Virus record (IMG/VR): IMGVR_UViG_2671181011_000016 | Reading direction: 5' to 3' (one strand) | Origin: a virus | Taxonomy: Duplodnaviria > Heunggongvirae > Uroviricota > Caudoviricetes | DNA length: 53,208 nt | In this document: positions 2,718 through 47,193 of the stretch, in pieces | How the letters are laid out: each line of letters starts with the position of its first letter | How positions within the stretch are numbered: the first letter of the stretch is position 1 | Notes under the pieces: model-generated | Database searches by the model: none | What the model was told of the DNA's origin: nothing | Seen by the model: only the letters and a program-made list of their open reading frames with translations | Position numbers and translations under genes: made by a program

Positions 2718-5700
2718 ATCCTGAGAATGAACCAGAACCGCGCGACACAATGACGGTCGGCGAGTTTATATATGCACCCCTACTATTTTGAGCGGATACC
2801 CTGATTTTAACCGTAACGCCCCTGCTAGTTACCGATGATGAGTGCATAACAAGGCGCTCGTCGCCATTCATAGACAGACTTTTCTCTGAACTGCCGATGA
2901 TTATCGTACAACCACCAAAACCTTTAACGTTTGCCATGACGCAAATATGTCTGCTGTGCGCTGCATTAGATGTGTCATTGTATGTGATTGTTTTTTCCAG
3001 TACTCCATCGGCTAACCTGCTGACGTCGGATCCTGTGTACATGTTCGCAACGTCACCTATAAAGGTTTTAGCCTCAAGTGAACCAGAAAATTTACCGCTA
3101 CTGGCGTGCACTTCACCTCTAACAACAACATTGTTAAATTCAGATGATCCGTCTTTTGTTATCCTCCAACCATTCGAACCAGCGACATAGTTTGATGATT
3201 TTATTTCATTAACAATTTTAGCCATAGTAATGGCTGCATCCGCAATTTTAGCTGTCCCTATTGATGCATTTTTAATAAACGCTTCTTTCACATACATTGC
3301 ACCGTTAGACACATAGAAAGGCGTTGTATATGTGCCGTTTGCTGCAGTCATCAATACGAAGCGGTCAACAAGGAAAATACACTGCGATTGAACGTTAGTA
3401 CCGTTGCCAGTCAGCCCAAGTGACATACCTGTTGCGTACTTCATGCCGTTGTTGTCGGTTGCCAGCTTGATAGAGTACGTCGCATCAACATTACCCTTGA
3501 AGTCGGTTAACGCTTTTGACGTCGTTTCTATTGCTGTTGTGTTCCCGTTAACGGTCACTGTTAGTTGATCGATCTTGCTTGATAGTGCCTCGTCAGCCGT
3601 TGCCATAGCCTGTGACCATTCTGTAATGCTTGAGTTTACAGAATCGAAAGACGCTGAGATCTGGCCGAATTTTTCCGCGCTTGATGCCTCATGCGTAGAA
3701 AGCGCCGTTGATACCTCAGACACCTTCGAGTTTATCGTGCTGGTAAGCGATGAGTTAAGGCTACTTATCGCGTCAGTGCGTGCCTTCGTTTCGTCTGCAA
3801 TTGCCTTGTCAATACGGGTCACGTTGCTTGTAACTTTGCCATCAAGGGTTGAAATTGACGCATTCACGCCGCTGATGGCTTGTGCTCTGGCACTGGCCTC
3901 GTCAGCAATTGCCTGGTCCAGTCTGCTAACTTCGGATTCAGTGTTGCTTTCAAGCGTGTTGATGCTTGCGTTCACACCGCTGATAGCCTCACTTCTTGCG
4001 CTGGTTTCGTCAGCGATTGCCTGGTCTAAGCGCTTAACGCTGGCGGCGGTTTTCTTGTCGAGCGCTGAAATGCTTGCGTTAACGTCGCTTACCGCCTCGC
4101 TGCGTGCGCTGGTTTCGTCAGCGATGGCCTTGTCAAGTCGTGAAACGCTGGCGTTTGTGTTACTTTCGAGCGTTGTTAAATCAGCTTTGACCTCTGTTAT
4201 TGCGTCGCTTCTTGCCTGCGTTTCGTCAGATATTGCCTTATCGAGTCTGCTCACGCTGGCGTCGGTTTTGCTTTCAAGATTGCTTATTGAGGCATTAACG
4301 CCGCTGATTGCCTGCGCACGGGCGCTTGATTCGTCAGCGATTGCTTGATCAAGGCGGTTCACGCTGGCGTCAGTTTTCTTGTCAAGATCAGCGATCGATG
4401 CGTTCACGTTATTAATTGCTTCTGCGCGGGCGCTTGATTCGTCTGCCACTGCGCGTTCCACGCTGGAGATCTGACCCTTAAGGTTGGAATCCATCGTGTT
4501 CATTTCTGCCGTGATGGTTTTCAGCGATTCAGCCGTGGCCCGCTTCTCTTCGGCAATAACGTTGTCGATGCGGTCAATCTGCGCGTTTGTTTCTGATTGC
4601 CCTTTCTTGTACTGTGCAGTGAGCGTAACCCGCGTGTTGGTCTGCGCGAGAGAGTTATTAATCAGCGCCAAAGATGCGTTTTGCAGGCTTGCTTTTGCTT
4701 GCGCCAGTTCGCTGTCGATTCTTTCGCTGGATACCTCTAGCGAGTCAATCCTTACCTCATGTTGCCCAATACCATCGGTGTTTTCACCAACCTTTTTATA
4801 AAGATCTTCCGTCTCTTTTTTCAGCGTGTCAGTGTCAGCTTTTATTTCACCTGTTTCTGTGATTAAGCTGTCAGTGTCAGTCCTCAATTCGTCAGTGATG
4901 TTTGTCAGGTTGTCAGTTGCAGTTTTTAGGTTGTCAGTAGCGTTTTTAAGGTCATTTGTGGCGCTTTCGATAAGGTCGGCACGGTCGCCAAGATCTTTAA
5001 TGTCGCCAATCATGTCCTTGAACTGTTCTGACTCCATGACATCCTTCATCACGTAGTCGCTGATTTCGTCGAAGTTTTCAGTCGGTTTTCCTGATGCCTC
5101 AACGAAGTCTGACACACCGAAAGCGTTACGCGTGCGCACATAAACGTAATATTTATGGCCCGTGTTCATGCCGCCGAAAGTCCATTGGTAGCCGCGCCCG
5201 GTGAATTGCGCCAAAGTTGTTACTTTTGACGGGTCAGTGATCTGATTTTCACCTGAGTAGTAAAACTCATATGCTGTATCAGTTGTCAGGGTTGTTTTGC
5301 TGATCGGATACACTGTTGCCTGGAAAACGCCAGGAACCCAATTAACACCAATCGGGGCGGCTGGCGCACCAATGACCAGATCCACAATACTTTCCGCACC
5401 CTTCATGCCAGTGTCATTACGCCCGCGAATACCAAGCGTGTAGCTGCCAGCGTCGAGGCCATAAAAATCATAGCGGTAGTTCGTGGTTTCATCAGTTGCC
5501 ACTACACGCCCATCGGCGTTATATACGCGAATTTCAAAGGTCAGGCGATGCGTTGTTGTCTGTGTTTCCCACGTTGCGCGACATTGAACAGTTTCAGAAC
5601 CAACATTTAACACCTTCAGGTTTTCGATGTTCGGCACGCGGAAGTGATTAAGCGTGTCGTTGTTTACCTCGAAGATTGCGCCTTCATCAACTACAGCCTG

Positions 5701-7482
5701 TTTGTGTGGATCGTGCTGTGCAGCCTCGATGGTGTACACGCTGTTATTTTCGGTTTCTGCTACGCTAGTGATTCGACACAGAACAGGTTTTGCAGATTCA
5801 GTAGACACGGCGAATACGGTTCCGTTGCGGATCCATGCTGGCGCTTCCGCAAGGGTAATATTGTTTCCGTTAACCCCAGTGATCTGATGTTTTTTGAACT
5901 TGCCGTCGCTGTCCAGTAAGCTGATAGTGTCGCCAGCCGCCACCAGGTCAGAATCAACCTTGTCTACAGTTATCACCTTCCCGTTATTCGCAACGATGCG
6001 ACCGCCCAAACGAGCGCCAGCGCGGTTATTGTCGAGTATCTCGATAATATCCCCTGGCGTGAAGTGAATTGCGTCACGGGCCATTTTAAACGTGAATTTT
6101 GAGGGTTCGCGTTTTGCTGTTTCTATCAGCCATTTGCCAGCGCGGTACGCCTGCCCGCGTGACGTGCAACCGAAAGCCTCCAACGTGGTTTCGTTGTAAC
6201 CATCGCGGGCGATCAGTTCGTCATCTGCCACGTATTCTTTTGATTGTTCCCAACCGTTTTCCGGGTCAGTCCATGACACGATCACGGCGTTGTAAGATTC
6301 TGCGCGGGCGATACTTGAACGAGTAAACGCACCATCAACGACATTAGCATTTGTGATGGTGGCAATTGGATCCTGCGGCGCATCAATCATCACAGTAAGG
6401 CGCTGCCCGTCCCATAACGCGATACCACGGAACATACCTGCAATGTTGTCCAGCAAGTCGCGGGCGCTCATTTGCTCCGTGATGTAAGCGTTAAGCGTCA
6501 TGCGTGGTTCAAGGCCACCGTAACCGTCGTTCACCAACTGGTCGCAGTATTGAGAAAGCGTATACAGTGCGCCATCATCAACGTCGATGTAACCAGCGTG
6601 GCGGGCAAGCCCGAAGCGTTCATTTTTCACCAGATACCGGAAAAGCCATGCAGGGTTATTGGTGTATGCCTTTTTAAAGCCACCAAGCCATAAACCTGAG
6701 TACGTGCGCGTTTCCGGGTCGTAGTTATCAGGCACGTCAACAATCAGGCCGCGCATGTGATAAGTACGTGTCGGCGTGTCAGTATACTGATCGTGGTCAA
6801 TTACCGCGCCTGCTACAGCGGTGTGAGGATAAGATAAATTATCGTCGATTATCTCGCTGTAACTGCTCCACCTGGTGTCGTTGTGAAGTAGATCGCCTGT
6901 GCTGTCTGGCGTTACGCGACGAACGCGAATATCAAACGGTTTTTCATCCGGCGCTTTGATGATGTGCGCTTCGAGGTACTCACCGCTTTGTTTACCCGGG
7001 CCGATGTGAATATCTTTAACCAGTGACCACGTTGTTGAAGATGAAGGCTTAACGTCAACCATCAACGTAACGGATGTATTGTATTGATTGCCCTTATCAT
7101 CTGACTGAACCAGAGAATCAACGCCAAGATTCAGCCTTACGCGGTTAACGTTTGGATCTGAAACGGTCCTGATTATTGGCGTATCGTGAGTCACTTTTGC
7201 GTTGACAATAACGGTTGATTCAATGGCGTTGAAGCCATTGATTGGTGACTGGTCAGCCGTACCATTACGCCACGCCACACTAACGCCGGGGACTGATGTA
7301 CTGCCGTCGCTACCAGTGATAGGCGTGTCATTAAGCATTACGCTGTTTAATGGCGCTTTCTGGTTTACAGGGCCGTATATTGGGCCTTCGCTGAGAATGT
7401 CCAAAACACGATAAAACTGTTTGTGGAACAGGTTATCGTTTAATAGTGTTGGTGTTTTGGCTTTGCCGCCGCCGCTACTCAT
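2716..7482 (-). CDS. J: tail tip attachment / host specificity protein, lambda J-like, with expanded coiled-coil repeat region
   Basis: 1588 aa; N-terminal half aligns by eye with lambda gpJ (ILSEGPI.GPV, PFDIRVRR.TPDST, TLNAYITEQ, EAFGCTSRGQAYRAGKWL); C-terminal part also J-like around the repeat insertion. Confidence 0.85.
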   Translation of the reverse strand: MSSGGGKAKTPTLLNDNLFHKQFYRVLDILSEGPIYGPVNQKAPLNSVMLNDTPITGSDGSTSVPGVSVAWRNGTADQSPINGFNAIESTVIVNAKVTHDTPIIRTVSDPNVNRVRLNLGVDSLVQSDDKGNQYNTSVTLMVDVKPSSSTTWSLVKDIHIGPGKQSGEYLEAHIIKAPDEKPFDIRVRRVTPDSTGDLLHNDTRWSSYSEIIDDNLSYPHTAVAGAVIDHDQYTDTPTRTYHMRGLIVDVPDNYDPETRTYSGLWLGGFKKAYTNNPAWLFRYLVKNERFGLARHAGYIDVDDGALYTLSQYCDQLVNDGYGGLEPRMTLNAYITEQMSARDLLDNIAGMFRGIALWDGQRLTVMIDAPQDPIATITNANVVDGAFTRSSIARAESYNAVIVSWTDPENGWEQSKEYVADDELIARDGYNETTLEAFGCTSRGQAYRAGKWLIETAKREPSKFTFKMARDAIHFTPGDIIEILDNNRAGARLGGRIVANNGKVITVDKVDSDLVAAGDTISLLDSDGKFKKHQITGVNGNNITLAEAPAWIRNGTVFAVSTESAKPVLCRITSVAETENNSVYTIEAAQHDPHKQAVVDEGAIFEVNNDTLNHFRVPNIENLKVLNVGSETVQCRATWETQTTTHRLTFEIRVYNADGRVVATDETTNYRYDFYGLDAGSYTLGIRGRNDTGMKGAESIVDLVIGAPAAPIGVNWVPGVFQATVYPISKTTLTTDTAYEFYYSGENQITDPSKVTTLAQFTGRGYQWTFGGMNTGHKYYVYVRTRNAFGVSDFVEASGKPTENFDEISDYVMKDVMESEQFKDMIGDIKDLGDRADLIESATNDLKNATDNLKTATDNLTNITDELRTDTDSLITETGEIKADTDTLKKETEDLYKKVGENTDGIGQHEVRIDSLEVSSERIDSELAQAKASLQNASLALINNSLAQTNTRVTLTAQYKKGQSETNAQIDRIDNVIAEEKRATAESLKTITAEMNTMDSNLKGQISSVERAVADESSARAEAINNVNASIADLDKKTDASVNRLDQAIADESSARAQAISGVNASISNLESKTDASVSRLDKAISDETQARSDAITEVKADLTTLESNTNASVSRLDKAIADETSARSEAVSDVNASISALDKKTAASVKRLDQAIADETSARSEAISGVNASINTLESNTESEVSRLDQAIADEASARAQAISGVNASISTLDGKVTSNVTRIDKAIADETKARTDAISSLNSSLTSTINSKVSEVSTALSTHEASSAEKFGQISASFDSVNSSITEWSQAMATADEALSSKIDQLTVTVNGNTTAIETTSKALTDFKGNVDATYSIKLATDNNGMKYATGMSLGLTGNGTNVQSQCIFLVDRFVLMTAANGTYTTPFYVSNGAMYVKEAFIKNASIGTAKIADAAITMAKIVNEIKSSNYVAGSNGWRITKDGSSEFNNVVVRGEVHASSGKFSGSLEAKTFIGDVANMYTGSDVSRLADGVLEKTITYNDTSNAAHSRHICVMANVKGFGGCTIIIGSSEKSLSMNGDERLVMHSSSVTSRGVTVKIRVSAQNSRGAYINSPTVIVSRGSGSFSG
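3760..4460 (-). repeat. in-frame tandem repeats (about 7 copies of a ~105-bp / 35-aa unit) inside J
   Basis: Protein shows repeated units SVSRLD(K/Q)AIADE(T/S)SARSEAISGVNASI...; the antisense ORF track shows matching periodic LALVSSAIAWS units; boundaries approximate. Confidence 0.7.
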
Positions 7483-10616: not shown

Positions 10617-10754
10617 ATGAAAATCGAAGTTTTAGCGCTAATCGCAATGGGCTTGATAGTATTTGGCGTGCACGCTGCGGATTGGGACTGGAGCGCAATA
10701 GCTGAGAATATGGCGCACGCTCACCCGATTGGATTAGTGCACATGAATTTTTAA
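10617..10754 (+). CDS. small hydrophobic protein (moron A5)
   Basis: 45 aa; N-terminal hydrophobic stretch IEVLALIAMGLIVFGVHA (signal/TM-like); RBS GGAGTGG. Confidence 0.45.
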   Translation: MKIEVLALIAMGLIVFGVHAADWDWSAIAENMAHAHPIGLVHMNF

Positions 10755-10795
10755 CACAAACCCCGCTTCGGCGGGGTGTTATAGGTAGGTGAGAT

Positions 10796-10972
10796 ATGAA
10801 AGAGGGTGTGACTTATCAGCATGTGTATACATTTGAAATTTACCGCATATGTGATGGTTATGTTGAAGAGTATAAAATCTTCCCCCGTGGATACTGGAAG
10901 AGAGTTAAGATTTCTGTAAGGTTATTAAAGAAAATGTTTAAAAAAGGATTAATTCAAGAAATTGATTTTTAG
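10796..10972 (+). CDS. hypothetical basic protein (moron A6)
   Basis: 58 aa; RBS AGGTGAG 6 nt upstream of ATG. Confidence 0.5.
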   Translation: MKEGVTYQHVYTFEIYRICDGYVEEYKIFPRGYWKRVKISVRLLKKMFKKGLIQEIDF

Positions 10973-10980
10973 TAAACAAT

Positions 10981-11020
10981 AAAAAAAAGGGGGGGGTACC
11001 CCCTTATTGTTTTATTTGTC
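10981..11020. terminator. rho-independent terminator ending moron cassette A
   Basis: A8 run, G-run / TAC / C-run hairpin, then TTATTGTTTTATTT. Confidence 0.65.
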
Positions 11021-11098
11021 GTGACAACTTTCTATTTCATAGATGATCGTCATTCCTACCGCGATAATAAATACCATTACTAAGCCATCAACCAGCAT
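11012..11098 (-). CDS. micro-ORF encoding a 28-aa hydrophobic peptide
   Basis: MLVDGLVMVFIIAVGMTIIYEIESCHDK; ATG 2 nt after the stop of the upstream gene (TAATATG); single predicted TM helix. Confidence 0.35.
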   Translation of the reverse strand: MLVDGLVMVFIIAVGMTIIYEIESCHDK

Positions 11099-11099
11099 A

Positions 11100-11285
11100 T
11101 TAAACACCCTCAATCAAGAATAAATATTCCTTCCCTTCGTAAGATCTGCACCCCACGTACCCGTCGCCGTAGTCATGCAGATACCAGGTATCCCCTTTAT
11201 CACTCACCACTGTGAGATTATCGATCTGGTAGTCTTCGAATAGCGTAAATGATTCATCGCCAGCTTTAACGCACATCCCGTACAT
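11100..11285 (-). CDS. hypothetical protein coupled downstream of M
   Basis: 61 aa; strong RBS AAAGGGGG; start directly after the M stop. Confidence 0.5.
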   Translation of the reverse strand: MYGMCVKAGDESFTLFEDYQIDNLTVVSDKGDTWYLHDYGDGYVGCRSYEGKEYLFLIEGV

Positions 11286-39728: not shown

Positions 39729-39918
39729 TCACTCCGCCTTTCACGCGCTCCTTAATGTCCCACGTATGCGGTTTACATAACTCATGGTAATAGTGATCCG
39801 GCCTGCTGCCGAAATACCATTTACCTTCCATATAAAAATAAACGCCCGAAAAAATTCCGGGCGCTGCCTTTGTTGCTTCTTCTGGAATCTTCCATTCTTT
39901 ATACTGTTTAAACTTCAT
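39715..39918 (-). CDS. hypothetical protein
   Basis: 67 aa ORF. Confidence 0.4.
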   Translation of the reverse strand: MKFKQYKEWKIPEEATKAAPGIFSGVYFYMEGKWYFGSRPDHYYHELCKPHTWDIKERVKGGVIEDV

Positions 39919-40099
39919 ACATTAACACCGCCTTTTTAAGTGCGCTTAATTCAAAGTGCATAAGACGAAAATGCTGTACACCACCAACAATACTGACCTG
40001 ATAAATATCACCAACGCAGTTATAGTAATAACAACCAAATTGACCGATTCCGGCTAATTTAGCGTTATCCGGTATCATGTATTCGCCAACCTTTTTCAT
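39908..40099 (-). CDS. hypothetical protein
   Basis: 63 aa ORF; RBS GAGGTGA. Confidence 0.4.
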   Translation of the reverse strand: MKKVGEYMIPDNAKLAGIGQFGCYYYNCVGDIYQVSIVGGVQHFRLMHFELSALKKAVLMYEV

Positions 40100-40102
40100 A
40101 GA

Positions 40103-40195
40103 TCACCTCATATGGTATTCAATAAACCACCTGATAAACAGGCATAAGGCAATAAAACCCCAGCAACAGCACATATAAAACAATGTATCGTCCAT
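40103..40195 (-). CDS. micro-ORF encoding a 30-aa hydrophobic Cys-rich peptide
   Basis: MDDTLFYMCCCWGFIALCLFIRWFIEYHMR; start 2 nt after the upstream stop (TAATTATG). Confidence 0.35.
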   Translation of the reverse strand: MDDTLFYMCCCWGFIALCLFIRWFIEYHMR

Positions 40196-40197
40196 AA

Positions 40198-40416
40198 TTA
40201 AGCCTCAATAACACCGTAATCAAACGTGCCTAAATACCGTTCGATGCTTACAACCTCAATACCATCAATGCACCGTTTCCACACAGACACCCGGCTTTCA
40301 TTTTCCCGGAAGTGCATATTAGAAAGCACTTCATCGGCTGGATAGCTTTTCCCGGCGACGTAGGCATCATGTCCCACGCCACCTTCTATGCAATAAAGCA
40401 TCAATTCGCGTGCCAT
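40198..40416 (-). CDS. hypothetical protein
   Basis: 72 aa ORF. Confidence 0.4.
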   Translation of the reverse strand: MARELMLYCIEGGVGHDAYVAGKSYPADEVLSNMHFRENESRVSVWKRCIDGIEVVSIERYLGTFDYGVIEA

Positions 40417-40515
40417 CTTGTTTCCCTCCGTACCGTAAACCTTTTGATTTAAGTTTACAAAACGGATTCGCGATCACAGTACAAAATGTATAGCTATGTG
40501 ATCGCAATCACAATA

Positions 40516-41136
40516 TTAATGAAGTACGCGCTTTTCAGGTTCAGGCATTGGCTGTGACATTTTTCGTGCTTCATTAAGCATAGATATAGCCGCCTGCACG
40601 CCTAAATCATTTGCACGCATGTTAATACCAACCATTTCGCCATAAAACAACGGCATGATCGCCATTACGTCTTCCTCGTTGTGCCCTTCATCAATGCACT
40701 TCTGTAACGCTTTGGCCTCAAATATTTTCTTCATTACGCCGCGCACAGAATAAAGTGCAGCGCTACCCATATGGTTTTCGTCTAACGGGAAGATAACAGC
40801 ACTGCCGAACGCCAGCGGATCAAGCTCTTCCGGCACTGGCACGCGACCATATTCTTCTTCCATGCGTTTCACAAAAGTGAGGCAGAAGACATAACGAGCT
40901 ACAGCCGTTTTTTCTTCATTATCAAAAGACACATAGTCGCGCATCGACGCTTCCATCACAATATCAGCAACCTGTAACGCCAGATTCAAATCAGCGTCAT
41001 ACTTGCCAGCTTCCATATCTTTCAATACTTCGTGATAATCTTTAATTTCAACTTCATGAAAACTTGCGTCTTCAGTGTAGCGAGTGATTAACATGCCTTC
41101 GCTGCCGAGTGAATAAGCCGTTTTGATGTCTTTCAT
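40516..41136 (-). CDS. hypothetical protein
   Basis: 206 aa ORF; no recognisable domain. Confidence 0.5.
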   Translation of the reverse strand: MKDIKTAYSLGSEGMLITRYTEDASFHEVEIKDYHEVLKDMEAGKYDADLNLALQVADIVMEASMRDYVSFDNEEKTAVARYVFCLTFVKRMEEEYGRVPVPEELDPLAFGSAVIFPLDENHMGSAALYSVRGVMKKIFEAKALQKCIDEGHNEEDVMAIMPLFYGEMVGINMRANDLGVQAAISMLNEARKMSQPMPEPEKRVLH

Positions 41137-41149
41137 GATATTTATCCTT

Positions 41150-41482
41150 TTATAGTGGGTGATGCCATTTCATTTCAGTTTCTGAATTAAACGGGTTTCC
41201 TTCGCTTGAAAGGAATAAATCACGCTCCCGTTTCAGTTCTTCCGGGCTTATTTCTATTTCATCAATCTGACCGAACGATCCCGGCATCATTCGTTTTAAA
41301 TCAGATAGCGGACGCATAAGGCCGCAACCGCGTAACAGCATATCGACCGCGAATTGTCTACGTCCGGCGGCGTCATTAAAGCGCCGCGCCCAGGGCACAA
41401 CCACGATCCGGCGTTCGAATTTGATAAATAGTGATAGTTTGTTTGTTTCGCTATCATATGCTTTATGGAATTTAATTTTCAT
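41150..41482 (-). CDS. hypothetical protein
   Basis: 110 aa ORF. Confidence 0.45.
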   Translation of the reverse strand: MKIKFHKAYDSETNKLSLFIKFERRIVVVPWARRFNDAAGRRQFAVDMLLRGCGLMRPLSDLKRMMPGSFGQIDEIEISPEELKRERDLFLSSEGNPFNSETEMKWHHPL

Positions 41483-41663
41483 TTAACACCTCGACGTATT
41501 GCTCAAGATGCCATTTACCAACTTCATCCATGTTTTCGTCGTATATAATGACCTCTCCGCCTTGCCTGAATCTGAAAGCAGTGGCTGTAAATTCACGGCC
41601 CCACCACGCCTTTAAGCGCTCCCCACCTTTCAGGTCTTTGACCTTTACTTCTTTTATAGCCAT
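41472..41663 (-). CDS. hypothetical protein
   Basis: 63 aa ORF. Confidence 0.4.
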   Translation of the reverse strand: MAIKEVKVKDLKGGERLKAWWGREFTATAFRFRQGGEVIIYDENMDEVGKWHLEQYVEVLNEN

Positions 41664-41926
41664 ACGCCGTACATCCCATTCAGTCCGGCGAACAATTTCC
41701 GCCAGTGGTCTTCAACATAAGCCCGGAACGGCTTAACGCGAACATTGCGGGCCTTAAGTTCAATATCATCAAAGTAGCGCGGTTCTATGATTGTTCCGTC
41801 CAGGTATTTAACCACTAGCGGGCGCTCAAGATCGTTATACATCTTATTCAGTACAACTAGGCCAGGGTCATCACGATATTCAGGCAATACGACAAGATCA
41901 CCAGACTTTGCATCCCATGTTTTCAT
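41654..41926 (-). CDS. hypothetical protein
   Basis: about 90 aa from the ATG; RBS GGGGTGA. Confidence 0.4.
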   Translation of the reverse strand: MKTWDAKSGDLVVLPEYRDDPGLVVLNKMYNDLERPLVVKYLDGTIIEPRYFDDIELKARNVRVKPFRAYVEDHWRKLFAGLNGMYGVWL

Positions 41927-42042
41927 CACATCACCCCGCCGATATAGCTAATAATTGCCGCAGTCGCGCCAGCTATTACCACCATGAAGACGAAAGCGAC
42001 CACACAGAAAACAGCCTTGACAGTATTTTTGTCGACTCGCAT
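41926..42042 (-). CDS. micro-ORF encoding a 38-aa single-TM peptide
   Basis: MRVDKNTVKAVFCVVAFVFMVVIAGATAAIISYIGGVM; RBS GAGG; stop overlaps the next start (TGATG). Confidence 0.4.
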   Translation of the reverse strand: MRVDKNTVKAVFCVVAFVFMVVIAGATAAIISYIGGVM

Positions 42043-42049
42043 ATAAACC

Positions 42050-42157
42050 TCACATATCAGTAATCAGCTTAACAATCGCCACAGTGATATATAGTGACGC
42101 ACTAAGGTAAACAGCCGCCACAGCAACGGCGACGGATAACATTGCAATCTTTTTCAT
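42050..42157 (-). CDS. micro-ORF encoding a 35-aa single-TM peptide
   Basis: MKKIAMLSVAVAVAAVYLSASLYITVAIVKLITDM; strong RBS GGAGGGTGA; ATGA overlap with upstream gene. Confidence 0.45.
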   Translation of the reverse strand: MKKIAMLSVAVAVAAVYLSASLYITVAIVKLITDM

Positions 42158-42378
42158 TTGTCACCCTCCGCAATGAACTTGTTAAGCCACTTGTTATTAG
42201 CAAGGCGTTCGGCATCTTCGCCGAATGATTTTCGGTCGTTCAATTCCTTGCGAGTAGGCAGAGGCCATTTATCATGCCAGCCAGCCGACGTATCAAGCTC
42301 ATACATGCCGCCATCAAAATAAATAAGCTCATCACGACCATCAGGCATTTCTTTATCAATTTCTTTTTCTTCGATCAT
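42154..42378 (-). CDS. hypothetical protein
   Basis: 74 aa ORF. Confidence 0.4.
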   Translation of the reverse strand: MIEEKEIDKEMPDGRDELIYFDGGMYELDTSAGWHDKWPLPTRKELNDRKSFGEDAERLANNKWLNKFIAEGDK

Positions 42379-45899: not shown

Positions 45900-46958
45900 A
45901 TGAAGTGGTTTAAGCATGATAGCGATGCGAACCGCGATGAAAAACTTCAAAACGTTTTATTAGATTATGGCCTGGAAGGGTACGGGCTTTATTGGTATTG
46001 CCTAGAACTAATAACTTATGACGTAGATCAGCACAATCTAACTTTTGACCTACGACATGACGCAAGAATAATTGCGCGAAACGTCGGATCTACTGAAAAA
46101 CGTATAGAAGAAATGATGAAATACTTCATCGAAATTGGTTTGTTTGAATGTTCTCAAGGCCACATAACTTGTTTAAAGTTATTGAAAAGGCTGGACCAAT
46201 CAATGACTTCTAAAAGCGCTTACAGGGCCGCCATAAACACAGCGAAGGAGCAATTAAAATTAGAAAAGTTAATCAATCCAACACAAAAAGGTCATGATAG
46301 GGTCATGACCGGGTCAGGAAAGGGTCATGAATTAGAATTAGAATTAGAAGTAGAAAAAGAAAGAGAAAAAGATATATACACTTCGTGTATTGTCGAAAAT
46401 GAACAAAAAATGGTCAATCAGGATGGCGCAAACGAAGCGGCGTTGCGTTGCCTGGCCTTCTACAACGACAAGGCAGGATGCAAATGTCGTGATGCGAAGC
46501 CATTCATCGAACTACTGACAGAAACAAAAACACGTAAAGCGTATACGGAGGATGAGATCACATTAGTGATTGAGTGGGCTTTAACGCAATGGCGTAGCCG
46601 TGGTGGAACACCTAAGCCTATAAACATTTGCCGGGTAACTAAATTTGATGGGTATCTGGCTGATGCTGAAAAATGGCGCAAACTGTCAGCCACTGCAAAC
46701 GCTGCCGACGTAGTGGAGGCATTTAACAGCACGTTTGATGGCCTGTTGCCACCTGCCGAACTGGATCGGGATCTTGAACGCAAGATTTATGCGTTCACTG
46801 ACTACCTGAAAGACAAAAGCATCAACGGCTTTGTCGCCTACTTTGAAACGTTCAAAAACACGGCTTCAGATTTTTACTTCGGCAATGGCTTCACAGCGAC
46901 ACTTGATTTCCTTCTTAAACCAAAAACGCTACGTGATACACGATGTGGCGCTCTTTGA
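45900..46958 (+). CDS. replication initiation / replisome organizer protein
   Basis: 352 aa; N-terminus MKWFKHDSDANRDEKL...GLEGYGLYWYCLE resembles organizer-type N-terminal domains; contains phased iterons plus AT-rich tract like lambda O/ori. Confidence 0.55.
   Translation: MKWFKHDSDANRDEKLQNVLLDYGLEGYGLYWYCLELITYDVDQHNLTFDLRHDARIIARNVGSTEKRIEEMMKYFIEIGLFECSQGHITCLKLLKRLDQSMTSKSAYRAAINTAKEQLKLEKLINPTQKGHDRVMTGSGKGHELELELEVEKEREKDIYTSCIVENEQKMVNQDGANEAALRCLAFYNDKAGCKCRDAKPFIELLTETKTRKAYTEDEITLVIEWALTQWRSRGGTPKPINICRVTKFDGYLADAEKWRKLSATANAADVVEAFNSTFDGLLPPAELDRDLERKIYAFTDYLKDKSINGFVAYFETFKNTASDFYFGNGFTATLDFLLKPKTLRDTRCGAL
46288..46382. other. candidate origin of replication: four iterons with 11-bp phasing plus AT-rich tract
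   Basis: GGTCATGA at 46290, 46301, 46323 and GGTCAGGA at 46312 (exact 11-bp spacing), followed by ATTAGAATTAGAATTAGAAGTAGAAAAAGAAAGAGAAAAAGATATATA. Confidence 0.6.
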
Positions 46959-47091
46959 CCAACCACGATCCGCAAAAATCAAAAATTACCCACAAGACAA
47001 CCTCACCAGCGAGCTAAATCGCATATGGTGCTACACTTGCTTACCTTTTTGCGATTAGCTCGTTAGAGAGCGATTCAGAGAGGATTTCAAA

Positions 47092-47193
47092 ATGGACGGT
47101 AAACACGTTTTCGCCCTGGCTTTTGCCATCGCTGCGGCAATCGCTGTTAACGTGGTTTTGTTCGGCGGTTTGTTCCTTCTTGTCAATCCATAA
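47092..47193 (+). CDS. micro-ORF encoding a 33-aa single-TM peptide
   Basis: MDGKHVFALAFAIAAAIAVNVVLFGGLFLLVNP; RBS AGAGAGGA. Confidence 0.4.
   Translation: MDGKHVFALAFAIAAAIAVNVVLFGGLFLLVNP

Follow-up and report, generated by a model that had tools for sequence, protein, structure and literature searches.

Putative membrane micro-genes dispersed through the genome of an mEp021-like coliphage

Five hydrophobic micro-ORFs and their junctions

Five very small open reading frames (ORFs), here called micro-ORFs A to E, are dispersed through the 53,208-nucleotide IMG/VR virus record IMGVR_UViG_2671181011_000016 (the window, meaning that whole stretch at its full length). They had been singled out in an earlier note, made from the sequence alone, as genes for single-transmembrane peptides tucked behind larger genes. 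All five were recovered at exactly the coordinates given there, and each is dominated by one hydrophobic stretch: A (11012-11098, - strand) encodes 28 amino acids (aa), MLVDGLVMVFIIAVGMTIIYEIESCHDK; B (40103-40195, -) encodes 30 aa, MDDTLFYMCCCWGFIALCLFIRWFIEYHMR; C (41926-42042, -) 38 aa, MRVDKNTVKAVFCVVAFVFMVVIAGATAAIISYIGGVM; D (42050-42157, -) 35 aa, MKKIAMLSVAVAVAAVYLSASLYITVAIVKLITDM; and E (47092-47193, +) 33 aa, MDGKHVFALAFAIAAAIAVNVVLFGGLFLLVNP. The window represents an mEp021-like temperate coliphage of the mEpimmI group, with three searched segments matching this group (mEp010, mEp013, mEp021, mEp044, mEp515, mEp554 and MagusPhagus) at 86-95% nucleotide identity. The mEpimmI phages were recently described as Nus-dependent and non-lambdoid (PMC11893012).

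Good ribosome-binding sites had also been claimed, and each of A to E indeed has an ATG start with a Shine-Dalgarno (SD) motif of at least 4 nucleotides (nt) located 4-9 nt upstream. The ATGA or TAAnnATG junctions proposed to couple the ORFs to larger genes were found for A to D, in the forms TAAnATG, TAAnnATG, ATGA and TGATG, but not for E. The ATG of D overlaps the stop codon of a 74-aa gene (42154-42378) as ATGA, with the SD motif GGAGGG at 42164-42169. C starts 7 nt past D; its SD motif TGAGG (42048-42052) includes the D stop codon, and its own stop overlaps the ATG of a 90-aa gene (41654-41926) as TGATG. B follows a 72-aa gene (40198-40416) as TAAttATG, with the SD motif GAGG at 40203-40206, and ends 3 nt ahead of the ATG of a 63-aa gene (39908-40099). 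A is located within the tail-gene module, between M-like and L-like tail genes, and follows a 61-aa gene (11100-11285) as TAAtATG, with the SD motif GAGGG at 11107-11111. A pattern scan placed an intrinsic-terminator-like hairpin with a T run (10987-11005, -) 6 nt past the stop of A, which closes a unit of 61-aa gene, A and terminator; the A orthologues also have a G+C-rich hairpin 3' of them. E stands alone, 133 nt downstream of an O-like replication gene (45900-46958), has its own SD motif GAGAGGA (47078-47084) and is not translationally coupled.

B, C and D lie in a densely packed early operon (38.7-43.7 kb, -) with the order erf, ssb, an abc2-like gene, a string of small genes of unknown function, an ipe-like gene and a methylase gene. 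In the mEpimmI group, this leftward early operon is governed by an N-like antiterminator (PMC11893012). Gaps within the operon are 15 nt or less, with a conserved 99-nt non-coding stretch as the sole exception. By the ORF coordinates, removing C and D leaves a hole of 227 nt and removing B one of 98 nt. The larger neighbours of the micro-ORFs belong to PHROG families that are all of unknown function. The 90-aa neighbour (41654-41926) is named 'toxin-antitoxin system toxin subunit' by PGAP; it has no match in NCBIfam, Pfam or PDB and therefore gives no functional lead.

The single-transmembrane reading is supported by hydropathy for all five peptides, which are 28-38 aa long with 17-residue Kyte-Doolittle maxima of 2.28-2.90. 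For D, AlphaFold2 predicted one continuous helix, uninterrupted over residues 2-34, with a mean predicted local distance difference test (pLDDT) score of 94.9. A to E thus combine a length of no more than 50 aa, one bilayer-length hydrophobic segment and purifying selection (see below), as is characteristic of small single-pass membrane proteins. From the charges at their ends, C and D should be oriented N-in (basic N-termini MRVDK and MKK) and B should be N-out (acidic N-terminus, basic C-terminus).

Several sequence features of these segments are retained among variants. By eye, the hydrophobic stretch of E has an Asn near its middle, and the peptide also contains a GG pair and an NP at the C-terminus; among the sequences compared, nearly all variants keep these features, including a 67%-identical copy from another phage. 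C has invariant small residues with the pattern GAxAA (alignment, by eye), and B carries LF(I/L/V)(R/S)W(F/V/L)IE at the C-terminal end of its hydrophobic segment, with L, F, W, I and E invariant in the alignment. Asn, GG and small-residue patterns like these are typical of helix-helix contact surfaces. Reading of the five sequences revealed no lipobox Cys. Smith-Waterman comparisons detected no similarity of A to E to one another, to NinA or to HK97 gp15. Paralogy among the five was considered and none was found, the only suggestive pair being A and one member of a separate tandem array.

Chance expectation, conservation and selection

The window was subjected to a strict scan of both strands for ATG-initiated ORFs of 20-60 codons with an SD core of 4 nt or more, spaced 3-12 nt from the start, and a 17-residue Kyte-Doolittle window of at least 2.0. 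Thirteen matches were obtained, namely A to E, seven members of the tandem array and a 45-aa ORF (10617-10754, +), all of which sit in gaps between larger ORFs. In 100 dinucleotide-preserving shuffles, the number of matches was 0.71 +/- 0.85, with a maximum of 4. The same scan gave three matches in lambda (NinA, Rz1 and a false one inside an annotated gene), two in HK97 and one, which was false, in P22. Measured against lambda, HK97 and P22, these counts support the view of the earlier note that the phage has an unusually large repertoire of membrane micro-proteins; the excess over the lambdoid phages comes mostly from the tandem array. The G+C content of C, D and E (0.43-0.49) is near that of the window (0.465), and their hydrophobicity is therefore not merely a by-product of AT-richness.

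Frame conservation in related phages had been named as a check on which the proposal could fail. The frames were open in every carrier genome, and the proposal was not refuted. B, C and D are intact, with SD motifs and junctions kept, in seven sequenced relatives, 36 IMG/VR contigs and four E. coli prophages whose identity to the window is ~78-85%, and no related locus that was examined has a broken or missing B or C. The frame of D is unbroken in 48 of 48 related loci, which represent 25 nucleotide haplotypes and include 35- and 37-aa forms that differ by an in-frame insertion or deletion (indel) of 6 nt. E is intact, with 33 aa, in all 36 genomes (36/36). A is likewise intact (28 aa) in five of five carriers: the window, E. 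coli RM9245 and three IMG/VR contigs. The SD motifs and overlaps are kept even where the sequence diverges, and all length changes among the alleles are in-frame indels of 3 or 6 nt. C has a 3-nt indel among the seven sequenced relatives, and its alleles (38-40 aa, 45-55% protein identity) are always open and hydrophobic; divergent alleles retain the overlap with the downstream start, in the form TGATG or ATGA. Between the two types of C allele, amino-acid identity is only ~45%, but hydrophobicity is equal. For B, 23 haplotypes were observed, and in some prophages 29-32-aa variants with ~41-45% identity occupy the same position and are still hydrophobic. No relative of D was found when species-representative genomes were scanned, and the D family appears to be confined to this phage group.

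The substitutions themselves carry a protein-coding signature. The pooled ratio of non-synonymous to synonymous polymorphism (pN/pS) is 0.34 for B, 0.37 for C, 0.26 for D and 0.13 for E. Variable sites are distributed over codon positions 1/2/3 as 16/7/22 in B, 16/13/27 in C, 17/13/33 in D, 11/10/24 in E and 6/0/13 in A, a third-position bias with chi-square p values of 0.001-0.05. For C, pS is about 0.7, i.e., saturated, against a pN of about 0.3, and synonymous sites are also saturated between the D allele types. These comparisons show A to E to be genuine protein-coding micro-genes with purifying selection on the amino-acid sequence, which encode little beyond one membrane-length hydrophobic helix. 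That they are real, translated membrane micro-proteins is very likely.

E was also found outside the phage group. An exhaustive HMMER search with E against 1.84 billion representative proteins returned only three clusters, indicating a narrow family. One of these clusters, with 67% amino-acid and 70% nucleotide identity, is located on a 16.6-kb contig of an uncultured (metagenomic) coliphage, with the copy at 4001-4102. This contig has 41% G+C and small same-strand genes, and shares only short patches with large virulent coliphages; it is therefore not an mEpimmI phage. Its E copy stands alone behind a hairpin, with a pS of 0.64 against a pN of 0.20 relative to the window copy, and further hydrophobic micro-ORFs of 33-38 aa are present around it (506-616, 3560-3661 and 6104-6220). 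E is best regarded as a mobile micro-gene whose peptide sequence is maintained whatever the context.

In the window, the 133-nt leader of E contains a hairpin (47008-47064, +), and a 141-nt stretch there folds with -32 kcal/mol (z = -2.6). The outer stem GAGCTAA/TTAGCTC is kept in 30 relatives, and the hairpin lacks a terminator-like T run. The inner stem differs between alleles, with several versions that covary in part, and is broken in a few recombinants.

Relative to mEp010, mEp013, mEp021, mEp515 and MagusPhagus, the window has a specific insertion at ~10760-11010, between the 45-aa ORF and A, which carries a 58-aa ORF (10796-10972, +) flanked by hairpin terminators at 10760-10777 and 10987-11005. 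Based on its distribution, A is best described as a flexible gene. At the position of B, some prophages have a divergent 29-32-aa B-like peptide together with two more ORFs, one hydrophobic and 32 aa long (MWLIDLILACWLIVLVGFVGYFAWEEGKHNGR) and one for a membrane protein of 60 aa; in one prophage stretch these features lie at 509-686 and 919-1101. The B position appears to be a hotspot for the exchange of small membrane genes. At the junction of B with the following gene (40099-40105 in the window), a change of the B stop codon to Trp produces a 96-aa fusion of the two on four public contigs. Read-through fusing B to the 63-aa gene (TGA plus 3 nt, in frame) was rejected as a conserved feature, since the spacer is 4 nt in mEp013.

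The 99-nt gap (40417-40515) lies just upstream of the 72-aa gene and B; it is kept across relatives, and the early operon has no other sizeable non-coding gap. It contains a perfect CRP-type consensus, TGTGA-N6-TCACA, at 40497-40512 (one in the window against 0.04 expected). A GTAAAC...GTTTAC hairpin and a further half-site are also present. In most relatives the consensus is replaced by CGTGA...TCACA. The gap may be an internal regulated promoter or operator.

Tandem array and a sixth dispersed micro-ORF

The tandem array, which the earlier note had listed as an 11-gene array, comprises 12 hydrophobic micro-ORFs of 22-42 aa at 25613-26621 (-), flanked by a 194-aa gene and by the small terminase gene, just upstream of the latter. 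Orthologous arrays, in which members have been gained or lost, have 11 members in MagusPhagus and 10 in mEp554. A resembles the array member at 26272-26346 with a Smith-Waterman z of 6.1, among 210 comparisons. The array is a more unusual feature of the genome than the dispersed micro-ORFs.

The 45-aa ORF at 10617-10754 (+), MKIEVLALIAMGLIVFGVHAADWDWSAIAENMAHAHPIGLVHMNF, is a sixth dispersed micro-ORF, recovered by the strict scan and unlisted in the earlier note. It is conserved, being an annotated 138-nt coding sequence in relatives and a member of a public cluster of 21 sequences. By eye, its hydrophobic N-terminus followed by VHA-AD resembles a cleavable signal peptide, and the ORF may encode a small exported peptide.

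Interpretation and competing explanations

As a whole, the observations are best explained by selected membrane micro-genes whose predicted inner-membrane helices would bind membrane proteins, and we hold this reading with good confidence. A role specifically as binders or modulators is tentative and rather less likely than not. B, C and D would be expressed from the long leftward early operon under the N-like antiterminator. At the abutting or overlapping junctions of A to D, ribosomes that terminate or arrive would re-initiate, or ribosomes would load at the micro-ORF's own SD motif. E would be made from the replication operon via its own ribosome-binding site, and A either along with the tail genes or as an addition of the moron type, with the terminator closing the unit. 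No convincing promoter was found upstream of the 61-aa gene, the only promoter-like match being inside A, and scans for sigma-70 and antisense promoters were uninformative. The peptides would insert in the host inner membrane as single-pass helices and act through helix-helix binding to host or phage membrane proteins. Their roles may be accessory host takeover, superinfection exclusion or protection from membrane-associated defence, rather than those of structural or lysis proteins.

Comparable proteins are known from other phages. NinA of lambda and P22 (gp56 in HK97) has 26-32 aa and a single hydrophobic helix, and its gene is wedged among larger early genes like the micro-ORFs described here; like E, it comes directly after the replication genes, and it has no assigned function. 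In contrast to E, NinA is coupled, and it is one gene per genome, whereas the window has six dispersed micro-ORFs and the array. Homology to NinA (MTIYITEL...) was not detected, with Smith-Waterman z values, taken relative to shuffled sequences, below 3 for A to E against NinA and of 15.3 for the control comparison of NinA with gp56. NinA itself has no model in Pfam or NCBIfam. In lambda, the 26-aa NinA (MTIYITELITGLLVIAGLFIWGRGKS) is located at 40567-40647 (+), overlaps the ren stop and the ninB start and is unannotated in J02459. The same peptide is annotated in P22 and named in UniProt, and HK97 gp56 is related to it.

HK97 gp15 (YebO-like) is a small inner-membrane moron protein that blocks the DNA entry of other phages (PMC3594210). 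It has an N-terminal hydrophobic helix, and its gene lies among tail genes with a terminator; the unit of 61-aa gene, A and terminator is comparably placed. However, gp15 has 62 aa with a soluble C-terminal part, against 28 aa for A. Homology to gp15 or YebO was not detected: neither A nor its 61-aa neighbour has a Pfam match, and comparisons of A to E with gp15 were outside the 15 best Smith-Waterman pairs (z < 2.6).

Among chromosomal proteins, the AcrZ, MgrB, MgtS, SgrT and YohP class is similar to A to E in size, in its one transmembrane helix, in the lack of recognisable domains and in often being missed by annotation. Members of this class are described in passages of PMC12648545 as usually binding transporters, kinases or proteases, and passages of PMC7549839 deal with the membrane insertion of YohP. 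The genes of this class are chromosomal, usually monocistronic and stress-regulated, whereas A to E are phage genes in polycistronic operons, and no homology was found between the two.

Some observations weigh against the interpretation of A to E as selected membrane micro-genes. The AT-richness of A and B (G+C 0.37-0.38) in itself favours hydrophobic codons. Substitutions in B are few, and the nucleotide sequence hardly varies over the 3' two-thirds of this ORF, so its selection signal is the weakest of the set and could partly reflect the downstream SD motif or recent recombination. A is missing from most relatives (mEp010, mEp013, mEp021, mEp515 and MagusPhagus), in which the terminator is directly behind the 61-aa gene. 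The paper on the mEpimmI phages, which includes virion mass spectrometry, never mentions these ORFs or the word 'transmembrane' (PMC11893012). Furthermore, the targets and roles suggested above are drawn by analogy only.

The tight junctions of A to D (ATGA, TGATG and 2-7-nt spacers) could alternatively mean that the ORFs are relays, translated only to keep ribosomes on the polycistronic mRNA, to prevent Rho-dependent polarity and to feed the next gene, with a functionless peptide. The presence of downstream SD motifs inside the micro-ORFs and the otherwise gap-free operon agree with such a role. Yet the pN/pS values of 0.13-0.37 are not about 1, hydrophobicity is kept across ~45%-identical alleles, and A, as the last ORF before a terminator, relays to nothing. 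The uncoupled E has the strongest purifying selection, and no other single observation counts as heavily against a purely relay role as its retention in an unrelated genome; we consider such a role decidedly improbable. Somewhat less improbable, though still unlikely, is that the peptides are toxic, i.e., type I toxin-like, Kil-like or holin-like, and depolarise or permeabilise the inner membrane instead of binding specific partners. Type I toxins such as Hok, Ldr, TisB, Ibs and Fst, hydrophobic peptides with a length of 19-50 aa and a single hydrophobic helix, are similar to A to E in length and composition. A consists of a hydrophobic helix and then an acidic tail, and E has its own leader with the upstream hairpin (47008-47064, z = -2.6). 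However, the searches for A to E found neither an antisense RNA gene nor an autonomous promoter, nor a match to any toxin family in Pfam or NCBIfam. The window has no Rfam family and hence no known antitoxin small RNA, and its promoter-like sites are not enriched (three found against 5.9 expected, none near E and none antisense to the ORFs). Four of the five ORFs are translationally linked to their neighbours, A to D being embedded in operons rather than in autonomous toxin-antitoxin cassettes, and the lysis cassette is elsewhere, with endolysin-sized and Rz-like ORFs at ~27.5-28.6 kb, as compared with 11, 40-42 and 47 kb for A to E.

Two further explanations concern the export of the peptides and the reality of the ORFs. 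D and the 45-aa ORF could be exported pre-peptides, in which a Sec signal is cleaved after SAS/SVS (D) or VHA (45-aa ORF) to leave a short periplasmic or secreted peptide. By eye, D combines a basic N-terminus with an Ala-rich hydrophobic core and, ahead of its best-conserved segment LYITVAI(I/V)KLI, a small-x-small motif (S-A-S or S-V-S), and the layout of the 45-aa ORF is a textbook n-h-c one with VHA-AD at its end. What would be the mature part of D is, however, itself strongly hydrophobic, and the AlphaFold2 helix is unbroken over residues 2-34. Overall this account is highly improbable; the 45-aa ORF is a more plausible case for it than D, for which it is possible. The ORFs could also be chance frames in non-coding spacers, over-called by aggressive callers of the PHANOTATE type. 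PGAP and the curated mEp021 record miss most of them and no family database has them, which would fit, but the 13 strict matches exceed the 0.71 expected. The frames are moreover 100% intact in 36-48 genomes with up to 25 haplotypes, with in-frame indels only and a third-position bias. Chance ORFs are effectively excluded by these comparative data.

A broader possibility, which we regard as rather doubtful, is that the ~18 hydrophobic micro-ORFs (six dispersed and 12 in the array) form a coordinated 'membrane micro-proteome' characteristic of this newly described phage family. It would be delivered in early, replication and late phases, with each member docking a different host inner-membrane machine, and it would evolve by duplication and dispersal; A resembles the array member at 26272-26346, and E has been passed between phages that are unrelated. 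DNA-entry channels, FtsH or other proteases and membrane-bound defence effectors may be among the docking machines. If true, such a micro-proteome would be a tractable natural library of transmembrane-helix inhibitors.

The claim that most of these ORFs fall below the usual ORF-calling cutoffs holds for PGAP, which leaves most of them unannotated in RefSeq prophages, and for the original mEp021 record, which also skips most; PHANOTATE and Pharokka, on the other hand, call them as 'hypothetical protein'. None of the micro-proteins scored above threshold in searches of Pfam, NCBIfam and PHROGs, and Rfam had no match anywhere in the window. The absence from PHROG is probably a consequence of the original mEp021 annotation, in which the micro-ORFs are left out. 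Exact copies are nevertheless present, as hypothetical proteins, in public protein collections, for B on 429 contigs, for C on 422, for D on nine and for E on 59. A one-residue variant of D is found on 423 contigs, and one D-type sequence is labelled 'putative membrane protein'. Phage small genes have reportedly been surveyed by Fremin et al. in 2022. In enterobacteria, tens of thousands of intergenic small-ORF clusters, mainly hydrophobic, are under selection (PMC11188072). The micro-genes described here are orphan families within a well-known class and introduce no new principle, as it is already known that phages encode many small hydrophobic proteins.

Because B, C, D and E occur intact in all of the related genomes examined, they behave like core genes, in a family of phages that is common in the human gut. 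Neither the reference mEp021 annotation nor most RefSeq prophage annotations include them, PHROGs and Pfam lack them as well, and analyses of gene content, core genomes and predicted functions therefore undercount membrane-active products. With 28-38 residues and one helix each, A to E provide compact, conserved test cases for how phages manipulate the host inner membrane.

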